Shown here one piece after another: positions 17,938 to 38,450 of a stretch of DNA of 64,000 bases. Both the position numbers and the translations under genes were made by a program. The DNA comes from Patescibacteria group bacterium. GTDB lineage: Bacteria > Patescibacteriota > Microgenomatia > UBA10105 > UBA927. The number at the start of each line of letters is the position of its first letter. Positions within the stretch are counted from its first letter, which is position 1. The notes beneath the pieces are model-generated. The model did not search any database. It saw only the letters and a list, made by a program, of their open reading frames with translations, and was not told where the DNA came from. The stretch covers positions 5,615 to 69,614 of the forward strand of contig JBBTWM010000033.1 in NCBI GenBank assembly GCA_038062795.1. Direction: 5' to 3'.

Positions 17938-20138
17938 ACGCGTTTACGGGTAACCATAACGAGACCGATAATTGTCCCGGCTATACTTATCATACTCAAT
18001 ATTGCGCCATATGTGGCACTTTTCGGTTTATAGGTCATCGTAACGGTGTGCTTGCCTGCGGGGACAACAACGCCGCGCATGGTCCAGTTGGTGCGGATAA
18101 TGGTGGCAGGATTACCATCGATGTGTGCCTGCCAACCCGGGTAATAGGTATCGGTAAGTATAAGTGATGCTGACCGAGTGCTTTCTGTCTGTATGATGAC
18201 GTGTTCCGGTTTATACGAAAGGATGGTGGCCGTTCCGTTGTTCATATACGCGCGGGGAGATGCATGTATGTTTTCATATACAGTCCAATCTTCAAACGCA
18301 TATACTTTTTTAAAAATAGCCGGAGGGTATGTCTGTTCGCTGCTGCCGTTTTCCGTGCGGTCTAAAATATAGCGCACGCTTAATGCATTGAGAATTTTTT
18401 GCTTATTGAGGCCAGAGAGCCCGCCGTCACCGAAGTTAGATGTAATCGCCGCATCCGAGCGAGTCGCATTGTCAAATTGTTTGAGGGGAGATCCATTCCG
18501 GTAACTATAGAGGAATTCTCCATACCATTTGGGATACAAGGGATCGTACCCTTCGGGGGAATACATGCCGTACTGAGTAGCGAAGTTTGCGGCAATATTG
18601 GCAGTGCCGTATCCCCAATACCGATCCGGCGCTTTTTTGGCAAGATAGGTGATTATCGGATGAGTCGGGAATACCAACGCTTTCGGAACAAACGGATTGA
18701 ACCGGTTAAAGAAGACGAACAGATCGAGCGTATGAATTATCAATAGCAGAATTATGGCGTGTGTTCGGAATTTCGGCAGTCTGATGGCAACCCAAAATAG
18801 CCCGAGCGTTGCTGCAGAAAGCATTCCTCCGTAGATAAGCGCGCGCACCGCGATCGGAGCGTGCTCTGAAAGGAACGGGGTGATCGGGAGTTTGGTTGCG
18901 AGAAATAAAATTCCGAATCCGGCACACACATCCAGTGTTCTACGGACGAGTTTTTTGACAGAGTGCTTATCGGTCATCCAATAATCCAGTCCCAGCCCGC
19001 ACGTTATGGCAAGGGAAAACGCAAAAAGAAAAGACATGAGTGTCGGGGAGCTGGATGTGATAAGGGGGATGGGAATTCGATACAGAATTTGGGTGAGGGG
19101 ATTTGACGTGATAAGAAAAAGTGTCGCGATAGTCGCAGTTATAAACCATTTGGTAGCATCATCTTTCCTCCGTATTGCAGAAAACGAGAAGAATAACGGG
19201 ATAAGTCCTATTGTGGTTACTTTTCCGACAAACGTGTCTGCCGGCCAATACGTGCGGGTTGCAGGATTTCCGAAGATGTTAGGGAAGGGGAGAGCGAAGA
19301 GCTGCCAGGGTTGGATAAGAATTTTTGTGAACAAGTTGTTCGGATCATGCGGGCTTCGCGCGGCGTTGGCGATAAGTTCAATACCAGGAATGAGTTGAAT
19401 TCCGGCGATTCCGACGCCAAGCAACGAGAAAATAAGTACGAGCTTTTTATGTTTTGATCGAAAAAGCGCATAGATAGATGTAAAGACAAACATGTACGAG
19501 TACACTTGCGGATGCCCGGCAAAAAGCGCTGCTGCGTTGCCAACTGTAATGAGCCAAAGCCATCGATTTTCTATCGCAAGGAGGATCAAGGGCAACCACA
19601 AAATTACCTGACCGACGGTGCTGTATTCAAGCCATACCGCCATAAAACCGGAAAATCCGTAGGAGAGCGCGGCAAGCGCACTTCCCTCCGGTCTCATGCC
19701 GAGCTTTCTTGCGTACCAATAGGTAAAAAGAGCAGCGAGAAGCGGTTGCAACACGATAAGAACGGTCCATGCATTCATTTGACTCATGAAGAGGTACAAC
19801 ACGCCGAGCGGATACATGGCGGCAGTTTGAAAATTAGCAAGTAACGGGGTGCCGGAAAAATTATATGGGTTCCAAAGCGGGAGTTTTCCTTGTTTTAACG
19901 ACTCGACGGCAAGCGTTTTCCATGGATACATTTGCCGGATCGTGTCCGGATATTGTGCCTTGTTCGGAATCCCTCCCGCGCCGTATCCTAAGTAGGACGA
20001 TGAACGCCAAGGCTGGAAGTCGCTGACAAGAATATCTCCGGGGAAAGGCACTTTTCCTAAGAATACCGTTTGGTAAAAAAACAGTGAAATAACAGCGGTA
20101 AGTATTACGATGATCCAGAGCCATTCTTTGCGTGCCAT
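17934..20138 (-). CDS. YfhO-family membrane protein (paralog 3)
   Basis: IRQMYPWK..LWNPYNFSGTP. The ORF track extends to 20219, but that start would overlap the upstream gene by ~80 nt. An internal ATG (MARKEWLW) near 20138 is more plausible. Confidence 0.6.
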   Translation of the reverse strand: MARKEWLWIIVILTAVISLFFYQTVFLGKVPFPGDILVSDFQPWRSSSYLGYGAGGIPNKAQYPDTIRQMYPWKTLAVESLKQGKLPLWNPYNFSGTPLLANFQTAAMYPLGVLYLFMSQMNAWTVLIVLQPLLAALFTYWYARKLGMRPEGSALAALSYGFSGFMAVWLEYSTVGQVILWLPLILLAIENRWLWLITVGNAAALFAGHPQVYSYMFVFTSIYALFRSKHKKLVLIFSLLGVGIAGIQLIPGIELIANAARSPHDPNNLFTKILIQPWQLFALPFPNIFGNPATRTYWPADTFVGKVTTIGLIPLFFSFSAIRRKDDATKWFITATIATLFLITSNPLTQILYRIPIPLITSSSPTLMSFLFAFSLAITCGLGLDYWMTDKHSVKKLVRRTLDVCAGFGILFLATKLPITPFLSEHAPIAVRALIYGGMLSAATLGLFWVAIRLPKFRTHAIILLLIIHTLDLFVFFNRFNPFVPKALVFPTHPIITYLAKKAPDRYWGYGTANIAANFATQYGMYSPEGYDPLYPKWYGEFLYSYRNGSPLKQFDNATRSDAAITSNFGDGGLSGLNKQKILNALSVRYILDRTENGSSEQTYPPAIFKKVYAFEDWTVYENIHASPRAYMNNGTATILSYKPEHVIIQTESTRSASLILTDTYYPGWQAHIDGNPATIIRTNWTMRGVVVPAGKHTVTMTYKPKSATYGAILSMISIAGTIIGLVMVTRKRV

Positions 20139-20139
20139 A

Positions 20140-21771
20140 TTATTTTTTCCGGCGATTTGGCGATAATAACAGTATTCCGATTCCGATGAGTGAGAGTGCC
20201 GTAATTGCTTCCGCAACACGCCGTACAGGTGACTCTCCCCACATTACCCGTATGGAATGAGTGCCTGAGGGAACCCGAAATGTAATAAGCCCCCGCCAGT
20301 TTTGATCCTGAAATTGAATCGGTATTTTTTGTCCGTCGCTTGTCACCCTCCATCCCGGGAAATATTGTGTGCGGTCAACCACATTTACATCCGTTTCGGC
20401 GGTGACGGTAAAGGTGTGTGTGGTTCCTTTCTTTTGCCCGTCGGATATGGTTCCGCGGCCCTCTATGACTTCAAATTGACTGACGGGATACGCGCCGGCA
20501 GGACCTGCTGACCAGATAACGTCGGTTTCGCCGAAGTAGGTCGTGTTGAGTGGATAATCCCAGAAATATTTTTCGTCGATTGTATCCATTCCGAGCGGAG
20601 GACGGAAGAAAACGATCACAGAAAGAATTGCGGCGGCGGCGATGATACCGGTTGTAAGGATTGTTGTCTTTTTTTTGACGAGTACCGCGCCTCCAACAAA
20701 GGCCAATGCAAATACTACGACATTGAGAAGTCTCCAGGGAAACTGAAACATCCGCAGTATAGGAATACCTGCCCAAAGGAATTTGGATACCGGCTGCATG
20801 AGGAAAAGGGCCCCAAGGGTGAGGAATAAGCCGAACGCGACTGCTTTTTTCTCCCTCTCATCGCGGATATATGTTCGCGTGAGTAGCACAATTGCGGTGA
20901 TAAACGCTATGACCTGCACCAGACCGAACGAAACCGTGATGCCGCCGGTCTGCATAGCTTCGCTATTGGTCAGATTCGGAAGCAGGAAGTTGAAAAAAGG
21001 CGCAAAGTGTGACGCATACATCTCTTTCATAAACAGATCACCGTACGTGTATTTGCGTTCAATAAGCGCCGGCAGCCAATAAAACGCAGAAAGCATGAGT
21101 CCTAATCCTAAACCTGCCCAAGCCACGAATAGCTTGCGGTTATCCGGGGCAAATACAACGGAATAAAGGACTGCTACTGTGAAGAAGACAAGGCTGATAG
21201 CGTTATGAGAGGTGATAAGAAGGGTTACGGCAAATCCGGTAAGCAGGATATTGTATCGGGTATTTTTTTCTTCAAACCCCCGCTGCAATCCAAAGAGTAC
21301 AAGCGGGAGAAAGGCGAGTGCGTATCCTTCTGCGATATCTCCCCGGACGACAAGATCGACTAAATGAAACGGTGCAAACTGGTAGAGCACGGTAGTGATG
21401 AACGCTTTACCCTCGTGTTTGAAGAACCGTAATGCAAACATATACATAAAAATACCTGAAAGCAGGAAACTCACGAGCATAGAGATTTTGAAGGAAAAAA
21501 CTAAGCCGCCACCTAATGCGATGACCAGCGAAGTAACCAGATACGGCACATGATAGATAAAATTAAATAACGGCATGCCGTATCCGTAGTTGAGTTCTCC
21601 TGCCCAGCGGGGAAGGATCTGACCTTCGGACAGAGCCTTATAGTAGGCGGCCATGCGGGCGTAGTGAACCGGGCTATCATGCGTGTGCGGAGCCAATGGG
21701 GTAGCAAATATGCTCAAAAACGGCAGGGCTGAAATTGCAATGACGAGAATATAATGCTTAAATGATTTCAT
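20140..21771 (-). CDS. polytopic membrane protein, HDG..H..PRW-motif family (family B), putative GT-C
   Basis: PHTHDSPVHYARMAAYYKALSEGQILPRWAGELNYGYGMPLF. Paralogs lie at 31035 and 35117. The track ORF begins with GTG at 21819. I prefer the ATG (MKSFKHY) at 21771, which leaves a 48-bp AT-rich divergent promoter gap. Confidence 0.5.
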   Translation of the reverse strand: MKSFKHYILVIAISALPFLSIFATPLAPHTHDSPVHYARMAAYYKALSEGQILPRWAGELNYGYGMPLFNFIYHVPYLVTSLVIALGGGLVFSFKISMLVSFLLSGIFMYMFALRFFKHEGKAFITTVLYQFAPFHLVDLVVRGDIAEGYALAFLPLVLFGLQRGFEEKNTRYNILLTGFAVTLLITSHNAISLVFFTVAVLYSVVFAPDNRKLFVAWAGLGLGLMLSAFYWLPALIERKYTYGDLFMKEMYASHFAPFFNFLLPNLTNSEAMQTGGITVSFGLVQVIAFITAIVLLTRTYIRDEREKKAVAFGLFLTLGALFLMQPVSKFLWAGIPILRMFQFPWRLLNVVVFALAFVGGAVLVKKKTTILTTGIIAAAAILSVIVFFRPPLGMDTIDEKYFWDYPLNTTYFGETDVIWSAGPAGAYPVSQFEVIEGRGTISDGQKKGTTHTFTVTAETDVNVVDRTQYFPGWRVTSDGQKIPIQFQDQNWRGLITFRVPSGTHSIRVMWGESPVRRVAEAITALSLIGIGILLLSPNRRKK

Positions 21772-21819
21772 GAGTAAGGTGGGCCGTGAGCTTATTATAA
21801 CAAAGAATTCTAAAGTCAC
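21772..21819. promoter_or_regulatory. divergent promoter region between minus-strand block and plus-strand genes
   Basis: An AT-rich 48-bp spacer (GTTATAATAAG contains a TATAAT-like box) between the 5' ends of the 20140(-) and 21820(+) genes. It exists only if the minus gene starts at the ATG at 21771. Confidence 0.3.
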
Positions 21820-23313
21820 ATGAAGACGGGAAAATCAATTGATTGGTGGTGGATCGGAATTATTTGTGTCGCCACATTTCTTCGCATATTCCGCATAGGG
21901 ACACTGACTGAGTTTCTTGGTGATCAGGGTAGAACGATGCTCACCATGCGCGATTTTTTGGAAGGCGGGATTGTACCTATTATCGGCCCGTCGACGTTAA
22001 GCGGACATAACGTTGGGCCGATGTTTTATTATCTTCTGGTGCCCGGCTATCCCGGCGGACCAATCGGTACATCGCTCTGGGTTGCTCTGCTTGGCGTGCT
22101 GGCAGTTGTGGTGATGTATGAAACGGCCCGGCTTATGTTTGGGCTGTGGCCGGCCAGACTTTCTGCACTTCTATGGGCCGTGTCTCCGCTCATCGTATTT
22201 GCCGACCGGGTAATATGGGAGCCGAATCTGGTCCCGCTTTTTGCAGCCCTGTATATCTACCTATTATATAGAGTGCATATGCATTGGTTCCGCTGGGCTT
22301 GGGTCTCTTTGGGGGCAGTGGTGGGTATCCTTGTACAACTTCACTACCCGAATGTGTTCTTTATCGGGCTTACCGGACTGTATCTTGTGGGCAGTATGGT
22401 TTTTCGGCTTCGCAATGTTACGTATACGTTGAAAGCAATCACCCTTTGGTCAGTAGGATTGATCCTGATGATGATGCCTTTTTTCATATATGAGTATGCC
22501 AATGGATTTAAAAATATTGCCGGGGTGACTTCAATAATCATTGGTAGTGGTGATATAACGCTCGGGAAGCGGGCCATGCTCGGACATGTCGTTGATTACG
22601 CATTCCGTGTATTCGGGCAGGTATTACCGTACATGAGGTTAACGATAGCCCCCTGGCTTATATCAGCATGGATGCTTTTCGTTATCGTTTTTCCGTCGAA
22701 AAAGAACTTATTTTTTTCATTATGGTTTTTTGGCGGACTTGTGTCTATGGGTAAATATACCGAAGTGGTATATGACCACTACCTCAACTTTTTAACCCCG
22801 GCGCCGTTTCTCCTTATCGGATCTGTGGTTTACTCAGTCAGAAATACATCATGGAAAAACGTCGTTTATGGTTTTGTCCTGCTTCTTTGCGTGTTGCAGC
22901 TTATGCAAACTGATGTGTTTGCGCGCGGGAGTAATGATATCGCACGGGTGAAAGCCGCAGTAACAGAAATCAAAACAATTGCAGGAGAATCGCCCTTCTC
23001 GTTTACGCTTATCAGCAGTCGATCGTATTCGGATTTGCACTACCGGTACTATATGGGTGTCATGAATGTGAATCCGGTATCTTTTGCTGATACAACGTAC
23101 CGGAAATTCATGCTCGTATGTGACCGAGCCGAATGCCCGTCGGTTTCTGAGATTACAACGCTCACGGACTTAGCGATATTGTGCTACGAACAGCATTGTA
23201 AGGAATTTTATCCGAAGCTTCCGATTCAAAAAGAATGGAAATACCAAAGCGATGTGCCGTTGCGCGCAAACGGGGGGCAATTAGGCAGGCTCTATATTTT
23301 TGACCGACGATAG
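21820..23313 (+). CDS. polytopic membrane protein, DQG-motif family (family C), putative GT-C
   Basis: FLGDQGRTMLTMRDF...GPMFYYLLVPGY. A paralog at 29536 carries FGFDQGLDFMAARS...GPGYRYILAV. Confidence 0.45.
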   Translation: MKTGKSIDWWWIGIICVATFLRIFRIGTLTEFLGDQGRTMLTMRDFLEGGIVPIIGPSTLSGHNVGPMFYYLLVPGYPGGPIGTSLWVALLGVLAVVVMYETARLMFGLWPARLSALLWAVSPLIVFADRVIWEPNLVPLFAALYIYLLYRVHMHWFRWAWVSLGAVVGILVQLHYPNVFFIGLTGLYLVGSMVFRLRNVTYTLKAITLWSVGLILMMMPFFIYEYANGFKNIAGVTSIIIGSGDITLGKRAMLGHVVDYAFRVFGQVLPYMRLTIAPWLISAWMLFVIVFPSKKNLFFSLWFFGGLVSMGKYTEVVYDHYLNFLTPAPFLLIGSVVYSVRNTSWKNVVYGFVLLLCVLQLMQTDVFARGSNDIARVKAAVTEIKTIAGESPFSFTLISSRSYSDLHYRYYMGVMNVNPVSFADTTYRKFMLVCDRAECPSVSEITTLTDLAILCYEQHCKEFYPKLPIQKEWKYQSDVPLRANGGQLGRLYIFDRR

Positions 23314-23354: not shown

Positions 23355-24626
23355 ATGGATGCAATGTTGGCCACAGTTCTTGACTCAATTCTTCTTTTTG
23401 CTTTCGCGGTTCCCGTGGTCATGAAATACCGGATACTTCCCGTTGAGGGAACGCCGTATTGGCTTTTCGGTATTCTTTTTCTCATTCTGGGTACACATTG
23501 TTTCATGTCGTTTTATCCGGGGATATTAGGAGGGTACAAAAAACATCTCGAAAAGCTAAAAATGCTATGTGTCACTACGACCATTGCAATAACGTTGGGA
23601 GGAGCTGTGGTGACTGCGATGTTTGATCGGGCGAAAACCGCGCCTGTCTACGGAGTCCATGACATTATCCTGCAGCAGGAGGCGGCAATGCGGTATCTGC
23701 TCGTAGGAAAAAATCCGTACAAGGAAACGTATTTCGGGACCCCGGTCGAATCTTTTAATTATGATGAACCGGGCAATACCGAGGCCACGAATCCGGCACT
23801 GTATCATTTTGTCATGCCGCCGTGGTACGTGCTTTTTCCTTTTGCGTTTTACTATACGGCAATTCCGGTACTGGGATTTTTTGACGGGCGGATGGCGTCA
23901 TTGTTTGCCATGATTCTGTTGCTCGTAACACTTCGGTATTGGTACCGGGATCACGCAATTTCACGGATTGCGATGACACTCACGGCCCTTTCCCCGTCGG
24001 TAGTCGAGTATTTTGTCGAAGGCAGAAGTGATGTTTTCGCGCTTTCCTGGCTTATGGCGTCGCTCGTGCTGCTTAACCAAAAACGCTTTGTGGCAAGCGG
24101 AGCGATGTTGGCGTTGTCGTTTCTCAGTAAACAAACTATCTGGTTCATAGCACCGTTTTATTTGTTGTATCTTTGGAAACAAACAAGGTCTCACACTGCG
24201 GTATTTTGGCAGACGGTGACTATCATAGTCGCAGTTTCGCTTGTGATCGTGACGCCGTTTTTGCTCTGGGATCCCCGCGCGTTTATCGGGAGTGTGATCC
24301 TGTACCTTACCGGTAGCACGGCTACCAGTTACCCTGTTTCGGGGTACGGGTGGGGCATGGTGTTATTAAGTTTCGGCTGGATACGGGATATCCATGCCTA
24401 TTATCCGTTTATCTACTGGCAACTAGGCATCGCAGTGCCTCTTGGCATCGTACTTATGCGCGGGCTATGGGCCATCCCTTCACAATCCCGGATGATTATT
24501 TTTTACGCGGTATTTTTGGGCGTGTACTGGTATTTCAGCCGGTATTTTAACAATAGTCATTTAGGATTCCTTTCGATGCTTTTTGTGTTGGGCGGACTGA
24601 AAGCCGTTGACGAAACGCATACATGA
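23355..24626 (+). CDS. integral membrane protein, possibly DUF2029/GT87-like
   Basis: About 10 predicted TM segments, and YHFVMPPWYVLFPFAFYY is reminiscent of GT87/DUF2029 proteins. A GGAGG-like RBS lies upstream. Confidence 0.35.
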   Translation: MDAMLATVLDSILLFAFAVPVVMKYRILPVEGTPYWLFGILFLILGTHCFMSFYPGILGGYKKHLEKLKMLCVTTTIAITLGGAVVTAMFDRAKTAPVYGVHDIILQQEAAMRYLLVGKNPYKETYFGTPVESFNYDEPGNTEATNPALYHFVMPPWYVLFPFAFYYTAIPVLGFFDGRMASLFAMILLLVTLRYWYRDHAISRIAMTLTALSPSVVEYFVEGRSDVFALSWLMASLVLLNQKRFVASGAMLALSFLSKQTIWFIAPFYLLYLWKQTRSHTAVFWQTVTIIVAVSLVIVTPFLLWDPRAFIGSVILYLTGSTATSYPVSGYGWGMVLLSFGWIRDIHAYYPFIYWQLGIAVPLGIVLMRGLWAIPSQSRMIIFYAVFLGVYWYFSRYFNNSHLGFLSMLFVLGGLKAVDETHT

Positions 24627-26245
24627 AACGATTCACTTGGTATCATGGTATTCTTCTTGGCATTATCGCGGTAGCGGCATTCGTCCGCATGGTAAACCTT
24701 GGCACCAATCCGCCCGCAATTTCGTGGGATGAGGCGTCGATAGGGTATAACGCGTACACCATTTCTACAACCGGACGGGATGAGCACGGCACATTCCTTC
24801 CTCTTGATACGTTTGCCGCATTCGGCGATTACAAACCTCCCGTTCCGGTGTATCTGACCGTTCCGTTCGTAGCACTCCTAGGGCTTAACGAAACAACGGT
24901 ACGTCTGCCGTCAGCGCTTTCCGGTGTGCTTACTGTGTTGGTTCTGTATTTGTTGGTACTTGAGTTGTTCCGGACTGCGAAGCATGCACAGGCGTTGGGA
25001 CTTGTGGCGGCTGGTGTGCTTACGATAACACCTTGGCATATTATGCTCTCCCGTGCTGCATTTGAAGCAAATATTGCACTGTTGTTTCTTGTCACGGGCA
25101 TATGGTTTGTTCTCAAAGCCCGCGAGAGTCCTGTATTTTTTTATGTGTGTTGGTTGCCGTTTGTTTTGGGTATTTACACATTTAACAGCACGAGGTACGC
25201 GGGTCCGCTTATTGCCGGTGCATTGATGGTCATCGTGTATAAGAGTGCCATGGCAGCAAAAAAACAAGTATTGGCAGGTTTGGTAATCGCATGTATCGTC
25301 CTTGTCCCCATCCTCCCGCATTTGGTATCCAAGCAGGCACGGCTCCGGTTCGAAGAGGTAAGCATATTTACCGATTTGCGCACGGTACTTATGTCTAATA
25401 CACGCCGTCACATTGATAATTTTTCGTGGTTTTCTTCAGCCCTGCATAATCGGCGGGTCGGGTACGCACGGGAATATTTCATTCACTTTTTTGATAATCT
25501 GGAACCGAGGTTTCTTTTCATAAAAGGAGACGGTAACCCGAAGTTTTCCATTCAGGACACAGGACAACTCCTTTTGGTGAGCGCACCGTTTATTGTCTAT
25601 GGATGGCTTACGGTGTTTCGTGATTACCCGGTCATTGCTATGTTTCTCTTGTGGTGGCTACTCGCTTCGATAGCTCCTACAGCAGTTGCCCGGGAAACTC
25701 CCCATGCGTTGCGTATTGAAAACGGTCTACCGGTCTATATGATAGTGACCGCGTACGGAATAGTAATGAGTGTTGTTGCCTTACGCAAATCACGAATCCG
25801 GAGTGTTCTGTTTACTGTTTACTGTTTACTGTTCATCGGTAACTTCGCCTATTTTTGGCATAATTTTATGTCGCATTATCCCAAGGAGTACTCCGGGGAA
25901 TGGCAGTATGGGTATAAACAGGCAATTACGCTGGCCAAAGCGCACAAAAACGAATACGACACGATTGTGCTCACGGAAAGCATCGGGAGGCCGTATATTT
26001 ACGCATTGTTTTACGAACAGTATCCGCTGAAACGTTTTGAGGAAACCCGCGATGCATCCTTTGATGCGGCAGGATTTTATAATGTCTACGGTTTCGGCGC
26101 CTACCGGTTTACCAAGGAAGGGGTCGGCGCGTATACCGGAAAGACACTCTACATTCTGCCGCCCAAAGATGTGCCTTTAGGCGTCCATATAATTGAAACG
26201 ATCAGATTGCTAAACGGAACAGCCGTTCTTGTCGCGTTTGAATAA
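24623..26245 (+). CDS. GT39/PMT_2-like membrane glycosyltransferase (paralog)
   Basis: GTNPPAISWDEASIGYNAYTISTTGRDEHG. It contains a TTTACTG heptamer tandem repeat at 25806-25831. Confidence 0.7.
   Translation: MKRFTWYHGILLGIIAVAAFVRMVNLGTNPPAISWDEASIGYNAYTISTTGRDEHGTFLPLDTFAAFGDYKPPVPVYLTVPFVALLGLNETTVRLPSALSGVLTVLVLYLLVLELFRTAKHAQALGLVAAGVLTITPWHIMLSRAAFEANIALLFLVTGIWFVLKARESPVFFYVCWLPFVLGIYTFNSTRYAGPLIAGALMVIVYKSAMAAKKQVLAGLVIACIVLVPILPHLVSKQARLRFEEVSIFTDLRTVLMSNTRRHIDNFSWFSSALHNRRVGYAREYFIHFFDNLEPRFLFIKGDGNPKFSIQDTGQLLLVSAPFIVYGWLTVFRDYPVIAMFLLWWLLASIAPTAVARETPHALRIENGLPVYMIVTAYGIVMSVVALRKSRIRSVLFTVYCLLFIGNFAYFWHNFMSHYPKEYSGEWQYGYKQAITLAKAHKNEYDTIVLTESIGRPYIYALFYEQYPLKRFEETRDASFDAAGFYNVYGFGAYRFTKEGVGAYTGKTLYILPPKDVPLGVHIIETIRLLNGTAVLVAFE
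25806..25831 (+). repeat. heptanucleotide tandem repeat (TTTACTG) x3 plus partial copy inside GT39-like CDS
   Basis: ctgTTTACTGTTTACTGTTTACTGttc encodes LFTVYCLLF. The unit is not a multiple of 3. Confidence 0.6.
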
Positions 26246-26246
26246 T

Positions 26247-27902
26247 ATGAAAAAAATTGCATTGATCGGAATTATAATGCTCGCAATAGGTCTTAGGTTT
26301 TGGCAACTTGGCGAGGTGCCGGTTTCGCCCGATTGGGACGAAGCGGCTCTTGGGTATAATGCATATTCAATACTTAAAACCGGGCGTGACGAATACGGCA
26401 CGTTTTTGCCCCGTGCACTGCGGTCGTTTGATGATTATAAGCCGCCGCTTTATGTATATTTAGCGGTACCGTCGGTTGCGGTGTTTGGTCTCAATACGTG
26501 GGCTGTTCGTTTGCCGGCGGCCGTAATGGGCGTATTTGCGGTGCTCGGAACGTATTTTTTGGTTGCTGAACTATTCAAGCAACCTCATATAAAGACGAAA
26601 AAACGAATCAGTGAATTTTCTACTCAGGCGTTATCTCTACTCACAGCCTTTTTGCTTGCTATCTCACCTTGGCATCTGCAGTTTTCGCGGATTGCATTTG
26701 AGGCAAATACGGGAGTGACATTCAATATCTGGGGGCTCGTCGCGTTTTTTCGCGGACTACAGTCCCTTCCCTGGATGGCGGCAAGCGCCTTTTTCTTCGG
26801 GCTCTCTCTCTATGCGTATCACAGTGAGCGGATTTTCGTGCCGCTTCTTTTGCTGATAGTGTCGGTTGTATGCCGCAAAGAATTGTTTGCTGATCGCAGG
26901 AAACTACTTATCGGTATCGTGGTTGGATTGCTTACTGTCCTGCCGTTATTACCCGTGGTGCTGGATAAGACATCGGTAACCAGGCTCAAAGGGACGAGTA
27001 CGCTTTCGGATGCTACCGGACTTTTAATGCGGTCCGTTGCTAAACTGGATGATGATCAAAAAGTAGGAAATGAAATCGGTACGATATTTGATAACCGCCG
27101 TATTGTGTATGCAAAGACTCTTTTGGACGGATATCTGAGCCACTTTTCATTGCGCTGGCTGTTCCTGGTGGGGGACAATGACCGGCATCACGCGCCCGAT
27201 AACGGACTGTTGTACTTTTGGGAATTACCCTTTATGGTATGGGGAATCTTTTCGGTATGGCGCCGCGGAGGAAGGGCGGCAATGGTATTACTGAGTTGGG
27301 TATTGGTGGCTCCGCTCGCTGCGTCTCCGACGAGTGAAACGCCTCATGCGATCAGGACACTCGTGATCCTTCCGGTCCTGCAGATATTTATCGCTTCCGG
27401 CGTTATGGAATTTCTTACGCATACGAAAAAATATTATGAGAAGCGGCGGACTGTTTTTGTATGGGTGCCGGCAGGGGTCCTAGTGACAGCGGTATTTCTG
27501 AATATCCTATTTTATTTCCACATGTATTATGTGCACTTAAATCACGAATACTCCAAGTTCTGGCAGTATGGATATGCGCAGGCAGTAGAATATGCCGAAT
27601 CTCATAAAGCGAAATATGAAAAAATTGTCGTTTCTACGGCTCTCGAACAGCCGCATATGTTTTTCCTTTTTTATACCAAATATGATCCGGTGAAATATTT
27701 GGCTAGCGGAGGAACTTCTTCAGGTGGATTTGCGGAAGTAAAAAACCGCTTTGACATGTACGAGTTCCGGCCGATATCAAACTGGGCGAAGGAATTGCAT
27801 GACGGAAGCATTCTATACATTGGATCTCCGAGAGAACTTCCCGGGGATGCATATACGATTACATATTTAAACGGTGACGATGCGATGCGTATTTCGGAAT
27901 AA
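26247..27902 (+). CDS. GT39/PMT_2-like membrane glycosyltransferase (paralog)
   Basis: LRFWQLGEVPVSPDWDEAALGYNAYSILKTGRDEYG. The ATG at 26247 sits just after the upstream stop. Confidence 0.7.
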   Translation: MKKIALIGIIMLAIGLRFWQLGEVPVSPDWDEAALGYNAYSILKTGRDEYGTFLPRALRSFDDYKPPLYVYLAVPSVAVFGLNTWAVRLPAAVMGVFAVLGTYFLVAELFKQPHIKTKKRISEFSTQALSLLTAFLLAISPWHLQFSRIAFEANTGVTFNIWGLVAFFRGLQSLPWMAASAFFFGLSLYAYHSERIFVPLLLLIVSVVCRKELFADRRKLLIGIVVGLLTVLPLLPVVLDKTSVTRLKGTSTLSDATGLLMRSVAKLDDDQKVGNEIGTIFDNRRIVYAKTLLDGYLSHFSLRWLFLVGDNDRHHAPDNGLLYFWELPFMVWGIFSVWRRGGRAAMVLLSWVLVAPLAASPTSETPHAIRTLVILPVLQIFIASGVMEFLTHTKKYYEKRRTVFVWVPAGVLVTAVFLNILFYFHMYYVHLNHEYSKFWQYGYAQAVEYAESHKAKYEKIVVSTALEQPHMFFLFYTKYDPVKYLASGGTSSGGFAEVKNRFDMYEFRPISNWAKELHDGSILYIGSPRELPGDAYTITYLNGDDAMRISE

Positions 27903-27910
27903 TATACAAC

Positions 27911-29539
27911 ATGAAACATTTGATCCTGGTGGGAATTCTGTTTGTTGCCGCTTTTTTCCGTTTCTATAATCTCTCCCAGGTGCCGCCGAGCCCGTCCCTT
28001 GACGAAGTTTCTATCGGCTACAATGCGTATTCAATTTTAACAACAGGTAAAGATGAATACGGGAGCGTACTCCCCATGCTGCTTCGTGCGTACGACGATT
28101 TCCGGCCGGCACTGTATGTATACCTCACGATACCGTTTGTATGGGTACTGGGACTCACTGTGGTCGCGGTGCGGTTACCTTCCGTTCTTTTATCGCTCAT
28201 TACCGTTTACGTAACATATTTAATCGGGCGGATGGTAGGGAAAAAATATCTGTCTTTTGAACGCCTTGGGGAAATCGCGGCCGTAATTCTAGCCGTATCG
28301 CCATGGCATATCTATATATCAAGACTGGGACATGAGGCAAATATCGGTTTAACGCTTACGACTCTCGGCATATTTTTTTTCCTGCGTGCAGTATTTTCCG
28401 GAAAGAAATCGTCATGGATACTTGCAGGTATTGCGTTTGGGTTGTCTTTGCATGGGTATCAGAGCGAGAAGGTGGTGATTCCGCTTCTCGTGCTGTTCGG
28501 GTCATATCTTTTTTGGAAAGAAATCAGGAAAGCAAAACGGCACGCGCTGATTGCAATAGTTGTGGGATTTGCAATCGCATTGCCGGCTATCGCGGCTACG
28601 GTTTCGCCGCAGGGAATGGTTCGCTTCCGCGCAACGAGCGCATTTTCTACCGATTCTCCCCGGGCGGTTTCCGCGGTCCAATCTTATATAGCATCAAAGG
28701 AGAAAGGGGATATAATCGGCCGGATCATATATAGCAAAGCGGTGACGAACGCCTCGATATTTATAGAGAACTATGCGTCTCATTTTTCTCCGGTTTGGCT
28801 TTTCTCCGGCAGCAATCGGGAGGCGCACAAAGTGCCTGGTATGGGGCTTTTATATCTATGGGAAGCACCATTTTTGCTCCTCGGCCTTTGGGCGCTAGGC
28901 AAGTCCCGGATACCCAAGCACCTTGCTGCTTTTCTTATCGCTGGTCTTCTTGTCGCGCCGATACCGGGAGCGATTACCACGCAGGCACCCCATGCTATGC
29001 GTGCTTATACGGAAATTCCGATAATGCAGCTTATAGAGGCGTTGGGTGCGTGGGTACTTATAAGTAAACTGAAAAAAAAGCAGTTGCAAATATTTGCCCT
29101 TATATTGGGCATGCTGATATCAGCCGGGGTAGTAAAATATTGGCAGGGATACTTTGTCCGATTTCCTGCGGAGCAGTCGGATAGTTTCCAATATGCGATC
29201 CGAGGAGCCGTGCAATACGGGTTAGATAACGCAAATCGTTATACGGCAATCCAATTTTCTAACCAGGGGAGCTTGTACCAGTCCTACATGTTTTTCCTCT
29301 ATTACAGCAAATTTGATCCGGCGGCCTATCATGCCCTTGGCGGAACCGGATCCGGCGGATTTGAAGAAGCGCATTATATTGGAAAGTATGCGTTCGGCAT
29401 CCTGCCACAGCAAGCCGAAAAAATTATTCCCGGAACGCTTTATTTCTATGATGCAAAAAACGTTCCGCAAGGCGCGCGCACATTGGAAACGTTTTCGAAT
29501 CTCGACGGAAAGCCGGCAATCACTGCCACAACATTATGA
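27911..29539 (+). CDS. GT39/PMT_2-like membrane glycosyltransferase (paralog)
   Basis: FRFYNLSQVPPSPSLDEVSIGYNAYSILTTGKDEYG. Confidence 0.7.
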   Translation: MKHLILVGILFVAAFFRFYNLSQVPPSPSLDEVSIGYNAYSILTTGKDEYGSVLPMLLRAYDDFRPALYVYLTIPFVWVLGLTVVAVRLPSVLLSLITVYVTYLIGRMVGKKYLSFERLGEIAAVILAVSPWHIYISRLGHEANIGLTLTTLGIFFFLRAVFSGKKSSWILAGIAFGLSLHGYQSEKVVIPLLVLFGSYLFWKEIRKAKRHALIAIVVGFAIALPAIAATVSPQGMVRFRATSAFSTDSPRAVSAVQSYIASKEKGDIIGRIIYSKAVTNASIFIENYASHFSPVWLFSGSNREAHKVPGMGLLYLWEAPFLLLGLWALGKSRIPKHLAAFLIAGLLVAPIPGAITTQAPHAMRAYTEIPIMQLIEALGAWVLISKLKKKQLQIFALILGMLISAGVVKYWQGYFVRFPAEQSDSFQYAIRGAVQYGLDNANRYTAIQFSNQGSLYQSYMFFLYYSKFDPAAYHALGGTGSGGFEEAHYIGKYAFGILPQQAEKIIPGTLYFYDAKNVPQGARTLETFSNLDGKPAITATTL

Positions 29540-31038
29540 AGTACGTACTTATTACCTTCGCAACCACGTTGGTGCTATTAGGGATGATTATCCGCGTGGT
29601 AGAAGTGGCCAACGGTAATTATGTTTTTGGATTTGATCAGGGACTTGATTTCATGGCTGCCCGTTCTATTGCAGTTGATCATAAACTCACCCTTATCGGA
29701 GCAGAAGCTGGGGCGGGATTCGCCGGATTGCCTGGCGTTTTTCACGGACCAGGGTACAGATATATTTTGGCCGTCCTTCTTTTTCTTTCCCACGGTAATC
29801 CATACGGGGCGATCGTGGGACTTGCTGTAATAAGTATTATCAGTTTATGGATGTTATATCGAATGGGCATAAGCATATTCGGACCGGTAGTAGCTGGAGT
29901 CATATTGGTGCTTGCTGCAGTTTCACCCCCTCTTACAGCACAAGCCCGTATGATATGGGCACCGAATTATTCGGCCGTTGTCGCTTTGCCGTTTCTTTAC
30001 GCAATTTGGTTATCCCGTAAAAAAACTGTTGCCGGCGCATTTCTGACTGCATTTTTTTCCGCGTTGTTGTATCACTTCGAATTGCCTATGGCTGTTCCCG
30101 CGATGCTCATGACTGTTCTCTATTTCGCATTTGTGTTGAAGTTTCGTGACATAAAGCTTTGGGCCGCTGTGTTTGCCGGTTTTTTCATAGGATTACTTCC
30201 CATGCTGTTATTTGAATCCCGGCATGGTTGGGGATTTGTGAAGGGCATCCTCACGTATGGCGTAAGGCTACGTGAGACATCGGTGACGGCACCGTTTTTT
30301 CCGCTTAAGGAATTGGTAGGCGACGGCAACGCAATTGTGAACACTATACGGGAATCATTTCTTTTTCCCGTGCCCTGGGTGCGACGCATGTTTCCATGGG
30401 TGCTGCTCGGAGGGACTCTTTGGTATGCAAAGCTAGAAAAAAAGAAAGAAATACAAACGTTTATATTCGGATTGTTATTACTTGTAGTTTCCCACCTTTT
30501 GGTATTTTATCCATATCGTGGACCTGTGTACGCCCATTACCTGACATTGTTATACTTTGTGTACCCGATCCTGGCCGCGTATTTGGCAGTTCGTGCATTA
30601 TCAGGGAAGGTAACCCGATGGATAGTGTATGCAGCTGCAATTATGCTAATAATCGGCGTACTGAAGCAAATCCCCAAAACGATAACGTCAGATTATCACG
30701 ATTACGGCGGCACTGCGAAAATCCGGGGCAAGACGGAAGCGCTTGACATCATCTATCAAGATGCGGCAGGAAAACCATTCGGACTTATGGTATTTACGCC
30801 TCCCGTTGTGCCATACGCGTACGAGTATCTTGCGAAGTGGTATGGAAAAAATACGTACGGCTATGTTCCTTCGTTTGAAAGGGGGCCAATATTTTACCTT
30901 CTGATCGAGCCGGATCCTGAGAAGCCATGGAGTTATAATGGATGGTTAGAGACGGTTATCAAGGAGGGGACAGTAATTCGTGCCTGGAATTTGCCGAGCG
31001 GATTTATTATTCAAAAAAGAGCGGAGCGTATCGAATGA
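29536..31038 (+). CDS. polytopic membrane protein, DQG-motif family (family C) paralog
   Basis: Shared blocks with 21820 (FDQGLD, GPGYRYILAV). ATGA overlap with the upstream gene. Confidence 0.45.
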   Translation: MKYVLITFATTLVLLGMIIRVVEVANGNYVFGFDQGLDFMAARSIAVDHKLTLIGAEAGAGFAGLPGVFHGPGYRYILAVLLFLSHGNPYGAIVGLAVISIISLWMLYRMGISIFGPVVAGVILVLAAVSPPLTAQARMIWAPNYSAVVALPFLYAIWLSRKKTVAGAFLTAFFSALLYHFELPMAVPAMLMTVLYFAFVLKFRDIKLWAAVFAGFFIGLLPMLLFESRHGWGFVKGILTYGVRLRETSVTAPFFPLKELVGDGNAIVNTIRESFLFPVPWVRRMFPWVLLGGTLWYAKLEKKKEIQTFIFGLLLLVVSHLLVFYPYRGPVYAHYLTLLYFVYPILAAYLAVRALSGKVTRWIVYAAAIMLIIGVLKQIPKTITSDYHDYGGTAKIRGKTEALDIIYQDAAGKPFGLMVFTPPVVPYAYEYLAKWYGKNTYGYVPSFERGPIFYLLIEPDPEKPWSYNGWLETVIKEGTVIRAWNLPSGFIIQKRAERIE

Positions 31039-32693
31039 AAAAATTCTTTATGAAGTGGGGCATTTGGACTGGACTCGTCGCCCTGTCCCTCCTGCCATTA
31101 TGGGATTTGATGCATCCTGGATTGCCGATAACCCATGATGGTCAGGATCATGTGGCCCGTATCGCAAACTTTTATCAATCATTATCCGAAGGGCATGTAG
31201 TTCCCAGATGGGCGGCAAATCTCAATTGGGGATATGGACATCCGATTCTCATGTTTTTGTATCCTTTGCCCTCATACGTCGCGTCGGCATTTCATTTTGT
31301 CGGATTTTCACTCATTGATAGCACCAAGCTTGTATTTGCTTTCGGATTCATCGCCAGCATGCTTGCGATGTATCTTTGGATAACCAGTGCGTGGGGAGTG
31401 GCCGCGGGTATTACCGCTTCCGTACTGTATGCATTTGCGCCGTACCGGTTTGTCGATCTATATGTGCGGGGGGCTATAGGGGAGCATATGGCATTTGTCT
31501 TCCCGCCGCTTATTTGTTACGGACTTCTGCTTCTGGCAAAAGAAAAGAATCATATTTCGGCGGTGGCCCTGACCGTTATTTCTTTCGGAACTGCGCTGCT
31601 TATTCTGTCCCATAACGCGCTGAGTCTCATATTTCTGCCGCTTATCGGATTATACGCGTTATATCTTGCCGCACAGGAGACGAAGACTCCGATACGGTTT
31701 CTTCTCATGAGTATAGCCGGAATACTGTTTGGTTTTCTTCTGTCTGCGTTTTACTGGGTTCCGGGTTATTTTGAAGGCAAATACACGCTTCGGGATATCG
31801 TAACGAAAGGAGAATTTACCGGCCGGTTTGTTCCGTGGTTTTCATTTCTCTATTCACCCTGGAGTTATGGCGGAGGCAATGAACTATCCAAGTGGTTGGG
31901 AGCAGGACAGATATTGGCATTGGGTCTGAGTTTCTTTGCACTGGAAAAAAATACGAAACACCGGCGTTTCATTATCGTTTGCATGCTGCTTTTGTTTTTC
32001 TCGCTCTTTGCCATGACCGCCAATTCTGCTCCCGTCTGGAACGCGGTAACCTTGCTTCAGAAATTTCAATTTCCCTGGAGACTTATGTCCGTGACCGTAT
32101 TTTTGATCGCAGGGATCGGGGCATTTGTTGTATACATAGCTCCGGAAAAAAGCAGGCGGTGGACCGCCCTTATTTTGGTCATCATATCGATATTTGGGAC
32201 GATACCGATGTGGCGAGCCAAGGAGTATAAAGTATTTCCGCAGTCGTATTTTACCGGCATATATAACAGTACTACCGATACGGGAGAAAGCAGTCCTATT
32301 TGGTCTATCCGGTTTATGGAAAAGCGGCCCGAAGCGCTTGCGTATATGGTGCCGCTCGCAGGCACGATCAACGTGGGTGAGCGGTCGACAACGCTGAAAG
32401 TTTACCGCGTGAATGTGAAAGAGCCCGCTAGATTTGTAGAAAGCACGCTGTATTTTCCGGGGTGGCAGGTGTTTATTAATGGAAGCCCTCTTGCCATAGA
32501 AAAGCTTATATTTCAGGACCCTACGTACCGGGGACTCATGACGTTTGATCTAACCCCGGGCGATTACGACATCAGGTTTGAGTTTGGAGAAACGAAACTC
32601 CGAAGGATTTCAAATTACCTGAGTCTCGGTGCGCTGGCATTATTCGTCGTCAGTATTGGTACAATACGTTTGCTATGGCGAAAAAAAGAATAA
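31035..32693 (+). CDS. polytopic membrane protein, family B paralog
   Basis: GLPITHDGQDHVARIANFYQSLSEGHVVPRWAANLNWGYGHPIL. The ATG at 31035 overlaps the upstream stop as ATGA. Confidence 0.5.
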   Translation: MKKFFMKWGIWTGLVALSLLPLWDLMHPGLPITHDGQDHVARIANFYQSLSEGHVVPRWAANLNWGYGHPILMFLYPLPSYVASAFHFVGFSLIDSTKLVFAFGFIASMLAMYLWITSAWGVAAGITASVLYAFAPYRFVDLYVRGAIGEHMAFVFPPLICYGLLLLAKEKNHISAVALTVISFGTALLILSHNALSLIFLPLIGLYALYLAAQETKTPIRFLLMSIAGILFGFLLSAFYWVPGYFEGKYTLRDIVTKGEFTGRFVPWFSFLYSPWSYGGGNELSKWLGAGQILALGLSFFALEKNTKHRRFIIVCMLLLFFSLFAMTANSAPVWNAVTLLQKFQFPWRLMSVTVFLIAGIGAFVVYIAPEKSRRWTALILVIISIFGTIPMWRAKEYKVFPQSYFTGIYNSTTDTGESSPIWSIRFMEKRPEALAYMVPLAGTINVGERSTTLKVYRVNVKEPARFVESTLYFPGWQVFINGSPLAIEKLIFQDPTYRGLMTFDLTPGDYDIRFEFGETKLRRISNYLSLGALALFVVSIGTIRLLWRKKE

Positions 32694-33448: not shown

Positions 33449-33975
33449 AACACATTGTTGCCTTGTATTTGTTCGGCATATTGCTTCTTGCTACGCCACT
33501 TCTGGTTCGCGCTGAGTATGTGTTGCCATACCCGTCTTATATGCCAGGAAATAAACACTATAAAATATCCCGTTTCATTGACAAGATACGACAGCCGTTT
33601 TATTTCGGAAATTTAAGTTCCTATAAATATCATTTAAGCCTCGCAGATAAATACCTGGTTGAAGCAAAGACACTATTTGAATACAAACAGTATTTATTGG
33701 CCTCTGATGCATTAGCTCGTTCGGATAGCGAGTTTGCAAAAACTACGCAGTTTCTTCTCGGCGCCAGACAGGAACGCAAAGACATCAGTGCATTTGTGCG
33801 CCAACTAGCGCAAGCATCAGCGCTGCACACCGAGATTCTCCTGCGCATGAACGAAGTATTACCCCCTTCGTATGAATGGAAACCGGAGAAATCAGATGCC
33901 ATACAGCTATCAATTGCAGATATGGTACGCGAGTCGGTGATGGTACGCAAAAACGCAGTGATCAGGTTACGATGA
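33445..33975 (+). CDS. hypothetical secreted protein (signal peptide)
   Basis: MKHIVALYLFGILLLATPLLVRA/EY looks like a signal peptide with a cleavage site. The protein is helical and Ala/Leu-rich with no recognisable domain. ATGA overlap with the upstream GT2. Confidence 0.4.
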   Translation: MKHIVALYLFGILLLATPLLVRAEYVLPYPSYMPGNKHYKISRFIDKIRQPFYFGNLSSYKYHLSLADKYLVEAKTLFEYKQYLLASDALARSDSEFAKTTQFLLGARQERKDISAFVRQLAQASALHTEILLRMNEVLPPSYEWKPEKSDAIQLSIADMVRESVMVRKNAVIRLR

Positions 33976-35114: not shown

Positions 35115-35116
35115 CT

Positions 35117-37736: not shown

Positions 37737-38450
37737 ATGCGGACGTTAACTATTATCATTCCTACATATAACGAGGCAAAAACTATTCACATAGTACTGC
37801 AGCGTGTCTTCGCGTCTACGCTTCTGGGGTGGCAGAAACAGGTTGTGGTCGTGGACGACGGTTCTGTAGACGACACAGTTGGCATTCTCAAAAAATGGCA
37901 AAGCCGGGCAACTATTGTGCATCTGTCACATAATCAGGGCAAAGGCGCGGCGGTTACTGAAGGGCTGCGGCGGGCAACAGGCGATATCATTATCATACAG
38001 GATGCGGATTTGGAATATAGTCCGGATGATTACCCTGTGCTGTTGAATCCTTTTGAAAACGTACGGGTGAACGCCGTATACGGCTCGCGCTTTTTGGGTC
38101 CGCACCTTTCCACAATGTTTATCTATGCACTTGGAAATAAATTTGTGACCCTGGTTACCAACATCCTCTACAACACCACCATTACCGATATGGAAACCGG
38201 GTACAAGGCGTTCCGGAGGTCAGCGGTGAAAGATTTGGAAATCAAGGCGAAACGGTTTGATTTCGAGCCGGAGGTGACGGCAAAGTTACTCAGGAGCGGC
38301 AACCAGATTTATGAGGTTCCCATTTCCTACTACGGCCGGAAATTTGAAGAAGGGAAGAAGTTGACGTGGCGGGACGGCGTTGTGGCACTTTTCACGCTAC
38401 TCAAATACCGCTGGTGGAATCCTGCTCCGCACGGAGGAAAAAAGGTTTGA
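37737..38450 (+). CDS. polyprenol-phosphate glycosyltransferase (DPM1/GtrB-like GT2)
   Basis: IIIPTYNEAKTI...VVVVDDGSVDDT...IQDADLEYSPDD, with a short C-terminus, matches Dpm1/GtrB-like enzymes. Confidence 0.7.
   Translation: MRTLTIIIPTYNEAKTIHIVLQRVFASTLLGWQKQVVVVDDGSVDDTVGILKKWQSRATIVHLSHNQGKGAAVTEGLRRATGDIIIIQDADLEYSPDDYPVLLNPFENVRVNAVYGSRFLGPHLSTMFIYALGNKFVTLVTNILYNTTITDMETGYKAFRRSAVKDLEIKAKRFDFEPEVTAKLLRSGNQIYEVPISYYGRKFEEGKKLTWRDGVVALFTLLKYRWWNPAPHGGKKV

Follow-up and report, generated by a model that had tools for sequence, protein, structure and literature searches.

Five ancient PMT/ArnT-type GT-C glycosyltransferase paralogues in a glycosylation island of a Microgenomates bacterium

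A 64-kb stretch of DNA from a Patescibacteria group bacterium (64,000 nucleotides of contig JBBTWM010000033.1, analysed at full length and termed here the window) encodes five large membrane proteins, designated B, C, H, I and J, that share an N-terminal block built around an Asp-Glu (DE) dipeptide. The bacterium is an ultra-small member of the Microgenomates of groundwater type, probably one of the Gottesmanbacteria. The five are GT-C glycosyltransferases of the type described by the Pfam family PMT_2. We regard it as likely that they constitute five ancient, non-redundant paralogues of a Microgenomates-wide PMT/ArnT-type (Pfam PMT_2) GT-C subfamily, which would transfer sugars at the outer face of the membrane by the mechanism set out in the Discussion. 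All five copies are probably active.

Results

Five divergent copies of one gene family

The five genes were located as open reading frames, three on the plus strand and two on the minus strand, as an earlier inspection of the letters alone (the sequence-only reading) had described. A distant sixth gene lies among them.

24623-26245, plus strand: H, an open reading frame of 540 amino acids (aa); DE is D36-E37, nucleotides (nt) 24728-24733; Pfam PMT_2, E 2.6e-10
26247-27902, plus strand (alternative TTG start at 26229): I, 551 aa (557 from 26229); DE at nt 26337-26342
27911-29539, plus strand: J, 542 aa; DE is D31-E32, nt 28001-28006; the copy chosen for the AlphaFold2 model
16303-17937, minus strand: C, 544 aa; DE at nt 17833-17838
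14629-16299, minus strand: B, 556 aa; DE at nt 16189-16194
21820-23313, plus strand: F, a distant sixth PMT_2 membrane protein with DQ instead of DE; Pfam PMT_2, E 2.9e-7 (31 bits)

Translation verified the DE codons in all five copies, and the shared N-terminal block was reproduced by their consensus, LRFYxLxxVPPSxSxDEASIGYNAYSILTTGRDEYG. Pairwise BLASTP comparison of the five gave identities of 26.6-35.5% over ~480-560 residues, with E-values from 1e-46 to 3e-107, and on this measure their similarity is far above chance. I and J are the closest pair and B and C the most distant, with B the most divergent of the five. A full-length MAFFT alignment of B, C, H, I and J contained 41 invariant columns. 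The start of H overlaps the stop of the GT87-like gene upstream (G) by 4 nt, and the ATG of I at 26247 lies 1 nt past the H stop codon.

The window holds exactly five close copies. F is much more distant, and its hhalign match to the family profile (probability 92%, E 6e-7) is restricted to the N-terminal 150 residues. No significant hhalign match to the same profile was obtained for K (29536-31038), A (12891-14600) or a 536-aa protein (60885-62495). Just past the first transmembrane helix (TM1), A carries 'PDEFDS' and the 536-aa protein carries 'GDECINY', both of them DE-like, while K carries 'FDQG'.

The DE motif and candidate donor-binding residues are conserved

Relatives were collected from 80 loci in GTDB species genomes, giving 290 family members including those of the window, 277 of them full length. 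Conservation was scored in an alignment of 80 representatives sharing <=45% identity, with residues numbered as in H. R22, D36, E37, R94, R144 and R364 were present in 80/80 relatives, followed by D53 (78/80), W138 (75/80), S143 (74/80) and K/R71 (69/80), and each of these residues is kept by 5/5 window copies. The DE dipeptide is thus fixed in position in every window copy and every relative. In the structure model of J it lies directly past TM1, at the start of the helix that opens the first extracytoplasmic loop (EL1). R364 belongs to a P-H-A-x-R motif that sequence and DSSP positions place between model helices 336-348 and 368-386, a location that fits the clan-wide phosphate-binding Arg of the TM9-TM10 loop preceding TM10.

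Two solved enzymes provided reference points for these residues. The family profile segment LRFYkLgsvPpslswDEasiG aligned to residues 56-89 of Chaetomium Pmt4 (...LTRFWGIS-HPDQVVFDEVHFG), with DE on D84-E85, and the family pattern PWH...SR...E fell on Pmt4 H187...R192...(D197, offset by one residue). R22, DE, H139 and R144 align in this way with ctPmt4 R71, D84-E85, H187 and R192. In the Pmt4 structure the invariant DE of the TMD1-TMD2 loop catalyses inverting transfer, and D84 and D197 are positioned for Mn2+ binding (PMC12705809). The K/R-P motif of the family aligned with K85 of Cupriavidus metallidurans ArnT (SEQRES index 88), and an hhalign comparison with Escherichia coli ArnT placed the family DE on "QPDETRY" and the family KP on "EKP", at a probability of 14% only. 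An analysis of the TMTC proteins names three hallmarks of the clan: EL1 holds an acidic pair, TM2 is preceded by a basic residue (K85 in ArnT), and the TM9-TM10 loop, which leads into TM10, has a strictly conserved Arg (PglB R375, STT3 R404) that binds the lipid phosphate (PMC7801869). The Pmt4 and ArnT alignments are each statistically weak and came from mixed-paralogue profiles only; taken as sequence alignments, they are mutually consistent in position. To that extent they uphold the proposal of the sequence-only reading that DE is the loop-1 motif of PMT and ArnT enzymes, the dipeptide falling on ctPmt4 D84-E85 in one case and on the PDE of E. coli ArnT in the other.

Conservation is unevenly distributed along the protein. 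Universally conserved columns make up 29% of EL1 and 27% of EL2, against 4-6% in the insertion between TM7 and TM8 (EL4) and in the C-terminal domain.

A GT-C fold is predicted for J

J was modelled with AlphaFold2 from an alignment of 70 sequences, and the model reached a mean predicted local distance difference test score (pLDDT) of 93.6 and a predicted TM-score (pTM) of 0.92. It runs from TM1 through a long external loop, which opens with the helix at DE, to six further TM helices; residues 232-317 then form a helical insertion (~85 residues), which is followed by another four TM helices and a C-terminal α/β domain of ~120 residues. The predicted architecture is therefore one of ~11 TM helices, with seven before and four after a helical extracytoplasmic insertion and with an external α/β domain at the C terminus.

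A Foldseek search of the model against the Protein Data Bank (PDB) returned 25 matches at E<=1e-3, all of them GT-C enzymes with TM-scores of ~0.5. With weaker E-values included, the GT-C matches grouped as follows, and AftB was also among the fold matches.

STT3/AglB/PglB: E 2e-7 to 4e-5
ArnT: E 3e-6, TM-score 0.52 in both directions
ALG12/ALG9: E 2.5e-5 to 1.3e-4
Pmt4 and Pmt1-Pmt2: E 7e-5 to 2e-3
EmbB, AftD and PimE: E 4e-4 to 9e-3

On the strength of the model, the family has a GT-C fold of the GT-C_A class (oligosaccharyltransferase (OST)/PMT/ArnT/ALG type). The C-terminal domain (J residues 423-542, nt 29177-29539, with equivalents in H, I, B and C) bears the motif PYIxxLFYxxYDPxxYQ. Modelled alone it reached a pLDDT of 90 and found no fold match in the PDB with Foldseek (best E 0.24, TM 0.24), and so it gave no hint on the acceptor.

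Assignment to the PMT/ArnT superfamily

H, I, J and C pass the gathering score of Pfam PMT_2 (PF13231), and C, alone among the window copies, also passes the threshold of PMT (PF02366). B is just under the thresholds, scoring 22.9 against 26.1 bits for PMT_2 and falling similarly short for the TMEM260-like family. Across the 80 diverse relatives, PMT_2 was matched at E<=1e-3 by 77 and PMT by 43; a weak STT3 match appeared in two, and no non-glycosyltransferase family recurred. Neither this survey nor the Foldseek search, in which all significant matches were GT-C enzymes, gave any sign of clustering with non-glycosyltransferase families.

Several markers of specific GT-C families were absent. 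The MIR domain had no Pfam match in the five window copies or the 80 relatives, and PMT_4TMC (PF16192) had none in the window copies and none at E<=1e-3 in the relatives. The five window sequences contain no WWDYG-type motif and no STT3 C-terminal domain. With NCBIfam, the five copies gave Agl23 and ArnT matches below threshold only; for the ArnT equivalog NF009784, J alone was matched, at 16.4 bits against a cut-off of 567, and does not belong to that equivalog.

J is 100% identical to a protein from a metagenome-assembled genome at NCBI named 'glycosyltransferase family 39 protein [Patescibacteria group bacterium]', a 'family 39' label that presumably derives from Pfam PMT-type models. At E<1e-5, at least 1,976 homologues of J were found, and a profile of the five copies searched against 1.84 billion proteins matched 15,342 representatives of 50%-identity clusters at E<=1e-10, 6,282 of them at E<=1e-30. 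The reach of the Pfam models is shown by E. coli K-12 ArnT (NC_000913.3 2370908-2372560), the founding GT83 enzyme, which matches PF02366 at E 2.4e-62 (211 bits) and PF13231 at E 4.5e-9. These models therefore cannot separate GT39 from GT83, and a database name that rests on them ('Dolichyl-phosphate-mannose-protein mannosyltransferase' or 'GT39', for example) need not mean protein O-mannosylation. For the same reason, and with neither MIR nor PMT_4TMC present, strict GT39 membership is not demonstrable. The initial description of the genes as GT39/PMT-like accordingly holds for its PMT-like part, through the PMT_2 and PMT matches and the GT-C fold, while GT39 specifically is not established. 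The best label is a subfamily of the PMT/ArnT (GT39/83, PMT_2) superfamily specific to the Candidate Phyla Radiation (CPR). The family is already annotated generically at NCBI, and the finding leaves knowledge of GT-C enzymology unchanged; a literature search on GT-C, GT39, GT83 or PF13231 in CPR or Microgenomates bacteria found no paper describing these arrays.

The paralogues are ancient and occur in a conserved order

Best-hit comparisons assigned most proteins of the loci to a single window copy. Each copy was 40-79% identical to its own orthologues in other Microgenomates, and in the six closest genomes it was 41-79% identical to its orthologue, while the other paralogues scored only ~200-340 bits. 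Orthologues in the closest genomes were 47-74% identical for C and 43-74% for B, and several loci titled Candidatus Gottesmanbacteria were 73-78% identical to H. All six genomes (L001, L002, L004, L005, L006 and L016) have the identical arrangement, in which B and C share a strand and are separated from H, I and J by ~7 kb of further GT-C genes. A neighbour-joining tree of the 277 full-length members contained a clade for each copy.

H clade: 81 sequences, one per locus in 81 loci; bootstrap 93
I strict clade: 19 sequences; bootstrap 100
J clade: 54 sequences; bootstrap 75
C clade: 65 sequences; bootstrap 50
B clade: 20 sequences; bootstrap 19 (weak)

The H clade is partly guaranteed by the sampling, as the loci were retrieved by similarity to H. 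The I and J clades are sisters and together form a clade without H, B and C. The H orthologue is followed immediately by a family member in 63 of 81 loci, mostly with a 4-nt overlap, and all 63 downstream genes fall in the I+J clade; the remaining loci are mostly cut by contig ends or, mainly in those titled Curtiss- or Chisholmbacteria, contain an inserted gene. The usual copy number is two to eight family members per 21-kb locus. Nearly all named loci carry the titles of Microgenomates-type CPR bacteria (Gottesman-, Levy-, Woese-, Curtiss-, Roizman- and Chisholmbacteria), and many other titles are generic or name other taxa.

With deep orthologues for each copy and a conserved order, the sequences place the duplications before the divergence of these Microgenomates lineages, every copy having been retained in very small genomes. 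By the same comparisons B, C, H, I and J form an ancient conserved paralogue set. The copies had originally been described as not recent duplicates, on the grounds of protein divergence, and their separate orthologues in other Microgenomates make that case more strongly than it was first put. The accompanying term, tandem triplication, does not survive: I and J are sister clades with H outside, B and C are the least similar pair, and the genes are ancient paralogues in conserved order.

Two further points concern the arrangement of H, I and J. In seven loci (L056, L058, L063, L065, L070, L075 and L077, several of them titled Chisholm- or Curtissbacteria), one or two genes have been inserted between H and I, which are otherwise adjacent, and arrays there reach 5-8 members per 21 kb. 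The overlap of H and I was also considered as a sign that the two products form a complex and was rejected as evidence for one: 4-nt overlaps and conserved order are general to the whole superlocus.

Genomic context and candidate donor synthases

The whole 64-kb window is one glycosylation island, with nearly all genes on the plus strand. The features that bear on the five paralogues are these.

34-1377, plus strand: Wzx-type flippase (Polysacc_synt_3), Pfam E 2.3e-50, at the island edge
12891-36667: run of large polytopic GT-C-like membrane proteins from A to u521, defined by Pfam and hydropathy and broken only by the family 2 glycosyltransferase (GT2) gene GT2e and a small DUF5667 gene
37737-38450, plus strand: GT2f, a GT2 resembling dolichyl-phosphate-mannose synthase (DPMS), ArnC and AglJ; candidate polyprenyl-phosphate-sugar donor synthase
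39693-40496, plus strand: GT2g, an ArnC/PpgS/PgfS-like GT2 and possible second donor synthase; weak matches at E ~1e-9, below cut-offs

Within the run the order is A, B, C, D (YfhO), E (PTPS_related), F, G (GT87-like), H, I, J, K, L (PTPS_related/YfhO), GT2e, DUF5667, u412 and u521. A synteny table of the 80 loci showed a recurrent order in which GT4a-YfhO2-GT2d-GT2f is followed by paralogues and then by H-I-(J)-(K)-L-GT2e-DUF5667-u412-u521-GT4b. In total the island encodes ~19 polytopic GT-C-like proteins, namely the five paralogues and ~14 others. Elsewhere in the window there are two further YfhO proteins and three further large polytopic proteins, along with at least nine enzymes of GT2, at least seven of GT4 and five epimerase/dehydratases; a DegT aminotransferase, ~5 S-adenosylmethionine (SAM) methyltransferases, a hexapeptide acyltransferase and the Wzx flippase are also present. 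There were no tRNA or Rfam matches in the window, and a promoter/terminator scan found nothing beyond the shuffled expectation.

Among PDB entries, GT2f matched Pyrococcus furiosus dolichyl-phosphate-mannose (Dol-P-Man) synthase (E 7e-17), ArnC (E 1e-12) and GtrB (E 3e-8). Its best NCBIfam matches were AglJ, Dol-P-hexose transferase, ArnC, PgfS and PpgS, all under cut-off. In ~25 loci, several titled Levybacteria, the GT2f orthologue lies just upstream of H, next to it or separated from it by one or two family paralogues. From these similarities, the donor of the five enzymes is likely to be a polyprenyl-phosphate sugar made by a DPMS/ArnC-like GT2 of the island.

Other genes of the window are recorded here for completeness. 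A protein with a Bro-N domain, typical of phage and virus proteins, is encoded at 3931-4758 (plus strand; Pfam E 2.7e-10) between GT2 genes and a HAD hydrolase gene. A 1045-aa protein (57761-60898, plus strand) has a polytopic membrane portion at its N terminus and an SGNH/GDSL hydrolase domain (Pfam E 2.5e-19) at its C terminus; it may represent a GT-C-like body fused to an enzyme that modifies O-acyl groups of glycans. Five large polytopic proteins have no Pfam family: 53426-56947, 60885-62495, 33876-35114, A (12891-14600) and K (29536-31038). u521 (35102-36667), with a weak YfhO match (E 0.0019), shares the N-terminal pattern 'THDG/S..H....W......G..PRW' with the PTPS_related proteins E (20140-21819) and L (30942-32693), and by this pattern it is probably a third member of the E/L group of GT-C proteins. 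With longest-open-reading-frame starts, D (17934-20219, minus strand) would overlap E by 80 nt and E (20140-21819, minus strand) would abut F at 21819/21820; both starts are probably over-extended, and internal ATGs (D ~20138, E ~21771) restore normal spacing.

Discussion

Proposed mechanism

The favoured reading is of five ancient and separately maintained enzymes that act on a polyprenyl-phosphate sugar. A cytoplasmic DPMS/ArnC-like GT2 (GT2f, possibly also GT2g) would load a monosaccharide onto polyprenyl phosphate, and the lipid-linked sugar would then be flipped across the membrane. Once the sugar is outside, the invariant D-E that opens EL1 would provide a catalytic base and a metal or acceptor ligand, while the lipid phosphate would be held by the basic residue before TM2 (K/R71) together with the invariant Arg before TM10 (R364). 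The sugar would be passed to its acceptor with inversion, on the outer face of the membrane. The donor type, the catalytic roles, the outside-facing active site and the distinct acceptors in this scheme are all inferred from solved GT-C enzymes.

Among the paralogues it is EL1 and EL2 that are conserved and the TM7-TM8 insertion and C-terminal domain that vary; from this we infer a common chemistry with different acceptors. The sequence-only reading had also proposed a specialisation for different acceptors or sugars, which has the standing of a conjecture. The five enzymes may thus share a mechanism, and probably a few donors, while working at different acceptor sites, as successive or parallel steps in the decoration of a cell-surface glycoconjugate to which the ~14 other GT-C-like island proteins would also contribute. 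Because the context is of a polysaccharide type and the GT-C enzymes are so many, stepwise elaboration of a surface glycan or glycopolymer is tentatively preferred to direct glycosylation of protein Ser/Thr residues, at a little short of an even chance.

Several observations weigh against this reading. By sequence, the family is tied only weakly to enzymes of solved structure (ArnT at E 2.5e-4 to 9e-3, Pmt4 at E 0.043), and a profile of J orthologues found no PDB sequence match; the same was true of copy C searched alone. The count of ~11 TM helices comes from DSSP and a crude hydropathy analysis. Oligosaccharyltransferases, which head the Foldseek matches, take pyrophosphate-linked donors, so the fold comparison does not prove the donor class. 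A search for columns that distinguish the orthogroups, and might determine specificity, found only two under the clade definitions used. The analysis turned up no candidate acceptor, and no Ser/Thr-rich candidate was seen in the window.

Alternative explanations

The strongest competitor is that the five are true GT39 protein O-mannosyl- or O-hexosyltransferases, each serving a different set of Ser/Thr sites on secreted or surface proteins (S-layer, pili, adhesins), with H and I/J perhaps paired in a heterodimer like that of Pmt1-Pmt2. Besides the GT-C fold, the family has much in common with the PMTs (PMT1/2/4, POMT1/2; GT39; PF02366 + MIR + PF16192). Both have an invariant DE where the TM1-TM2 loop begins, a conserved TM1 Arg and, in EL2, the pattern H...R...acid; both have ~11 TM helices, with TM7 and TM8 separated by a large insertion that is luminal or external; and in both, a genome encodes several diverged paralogues. 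In keeping with such a function are the PMT-like N-terminal module, with PF02366 matched by C and by 43/80 relatives, the alignment of R22, DE, H139 and R144 with ctPmt4 and the weak TMEM260-like match of B. The order of 7 TM helices, insertion and 4 TM helices likewise resembles the 7 TM + MIR + 4 TM layout of PMTs, and as PMTs are obligate dimers, the conserved and tightly coupled pair of H with I/J could be read as a heterodimer (PMC12705809). However, PF02366 matches ArnT even better (E 2.4e-62) and is thus no pointer to protein acceptors, and the tight overlaps and conserved order are true of the whole superlocus, not of H and I in particular. Where PMTs carry the MIR β-trefoil, this family has a helical insertion of ~85 residues; PMT_4TMC goes undetected, though four TM helices follow the insertion in the model; and the extra C-terminal α/β extracytoplasmic domain of ~120 residues and the bacterial (CPR) origin set the family apart further. 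Actinobacterial GT39 enzymes are not known to carry MIR either. The polysaccharide-type island (Wzx, many GT2 and GT4, YfhO and GT87-like genes), which holds no evident Ser/Thr-rich acceptor, also argues against direct action on proteins, and on balance we consider this explanation unlikely, while taking it seriously.

A second alternative is an ArnT-like (GT83-type) addition of sugar to a membrane lipid or lipid-anchored polymer, such as a glycolipid or a lipoteichoic-acid-like polymer, which would change surface charge or recognition. ArnT (GT83; PDB 5ezm/5f15) is the best PDB sequence match (E 2.5e-4 over TM2-TM7) and the only one with E below 0.01. It shares with the family its overall size (~550 aa), a C-terminal soluble domain, an alignable EL1 PDE and (E)KPP motif before TM2, the latter falling on ArnT K85, a Foldseek TM-score of 0.52 in both directions, and an ArnC-like GT2 partner in the gene neighbourhood; YfhO-type teichoic-acid glycosyltransferases also adjoin the paralogues. 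Yet the ArnT equivalog score of 16 bits is far from its cut-off of 567, ArnT has 13 TM helices against the ~11 counted here by DSSP and hydropathy, and D158 of ArnT stands where the family has the invariant R144. The C-terminal domain alone matched the fold of no PDB entry, ArnT included. The Microgenomates lineage is generally regarded as monoderm, and if it is, lipid A is not to be expected, although genes for lipopolysaccharide were not searched for. An ArnT-like role in this sense appears improbable.

Less probable again, and in our judgement very unlikely, is the en bloc transfer of a pre-assembled glycan from undecaprenyl-pyrophosphate to protein or cell wall, in the manner of an OST or a ligase. 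The best Foldseek matches are indeed STT3, AglB and PglB, the Wzx flippase and the many cytoplasmic GT2 and GT4 enzymes could build a pyrophosphate-linked unit, and two of the 80 relatives have a weak STT3 match in Pfam. Nevertheless, the WWDYG-type motif and the STT3 C-terminal domain are missing, the C-terminal domain present has no fold match in the PDB, 77/80 relatives are assigned to PMT/PMT_2, the fold similarity to OSTs is confined to the GT-C core, with TM-scores (~0.5) no better than that to ArnT, and five different en bloc transferases at one locus would be unusual.

The least credible account is that the copies have no distinct roles and are duplicates redundant in function or, as pseudo-enzymes, partly degenerate, as an identity of only ~30% and the sub-threshold Pfam scores of B might suggest, since every invariant catalytic or donor-binding residue is kept in all five and each copy has its own orthologues, in conserved order, across genera and classes of organisms with ~1 Mb genomes. 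The conservation of separate orthologues in very small genomes argues for purifying selection on separate functions.

Comparison with other multi-enzyme systems

If the five enzymes are distinct steps at the cell surface, as the favoured reading has it, known systems offer partial parallels. The animal PMT-clan O-mannosyltransferases TMTC1-4 and TMEM260 share all three clan hallmarks with this family (the acidic pair of EL1, the basic residue ahead of TM2 and the Arg of the TM9-TM10 loop), and they too comprise several paralogues, whose acceptor sets are distinct, as those of the family described here may be. They differ in that this family has no TPR domain, that the TMEM260-like match of B is sub-threshold and that the organisms are distantly related.

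The three-component systems CsbB/GtcA/YfhO, GtrA/B/V and Streptococcus mutans PgfS/M1/E/M2 act in extracytoplasmic glycosylation. Each encodes a GT2 polyprenyl-phosphate-sugar synthase, a flippase and a GT-C transferase together, and the island resembles them in its YfhO-family proteins and PgfS/ArnC-like GT2s. Their GT-C proteins number one or two and belong to other families, as against five PMT_2 paralogues here.

In the mycobacterial and corynebacterial sets (EmbA/B/C, AftA-D, PimE, MptA-C), many GT-C enzymes draw on one or two polyprenyl-phosphate-sugar donors to assemble, outside the membrane, a surface glycan of complex structure. The window, with ~19 GT-C-like proteins including a GT87-like one beside DPMS-like GT2s, is similar in outline. 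The mycobacterial enzymes belong to other Pfam families and their genes do not form one island of close paralogues, and no arabinan or mannan pathway genes were identified in the window; the comparison is offered as an analogy of logic and makes no claim of membership. A more far-reaching version can be put forward as speculation, and as a whole it is rather unlikely to be right: the island would be a Microgenomates-wide extracytoplasmic assembly line, with the five enzymes as ordered steps among ~15-20 GT-C enzymes fed by one or two polyprenyl-phosphate-sugar synthases, and would be a separately evolved counterpart of mycobacterial arabinogalactan/lipoarabinomannan (LAM) assembly. On this view H might pair with I/J in a heterodimer, as in PMTs, and recognition of the growing acceptor might fall to the C-terminal domain.

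Significance for the biology of Microgenomates

Attachment to other cells is the presumed way of life of CPR/Patescibacteria, which makes surface chemistry central to them, and that chemistry is essentially uncharacterised. A genome of ~1 Mb (contigs of relatives reach 1.0-1.2 Mb) that gives a continuous island of at least 64 kb to glycosylation makes a very large investment in it. The same superlocus is found in loci titled Gottesman-, Levy-, Woese-, Curtiss-, Roizman- and Chisholmbacteria. As a large family with defined invariant residues and a high-confidence structure model, the paralogues described here provide a tractable entry to the envelope glycobiology of uncultivated bacteria.

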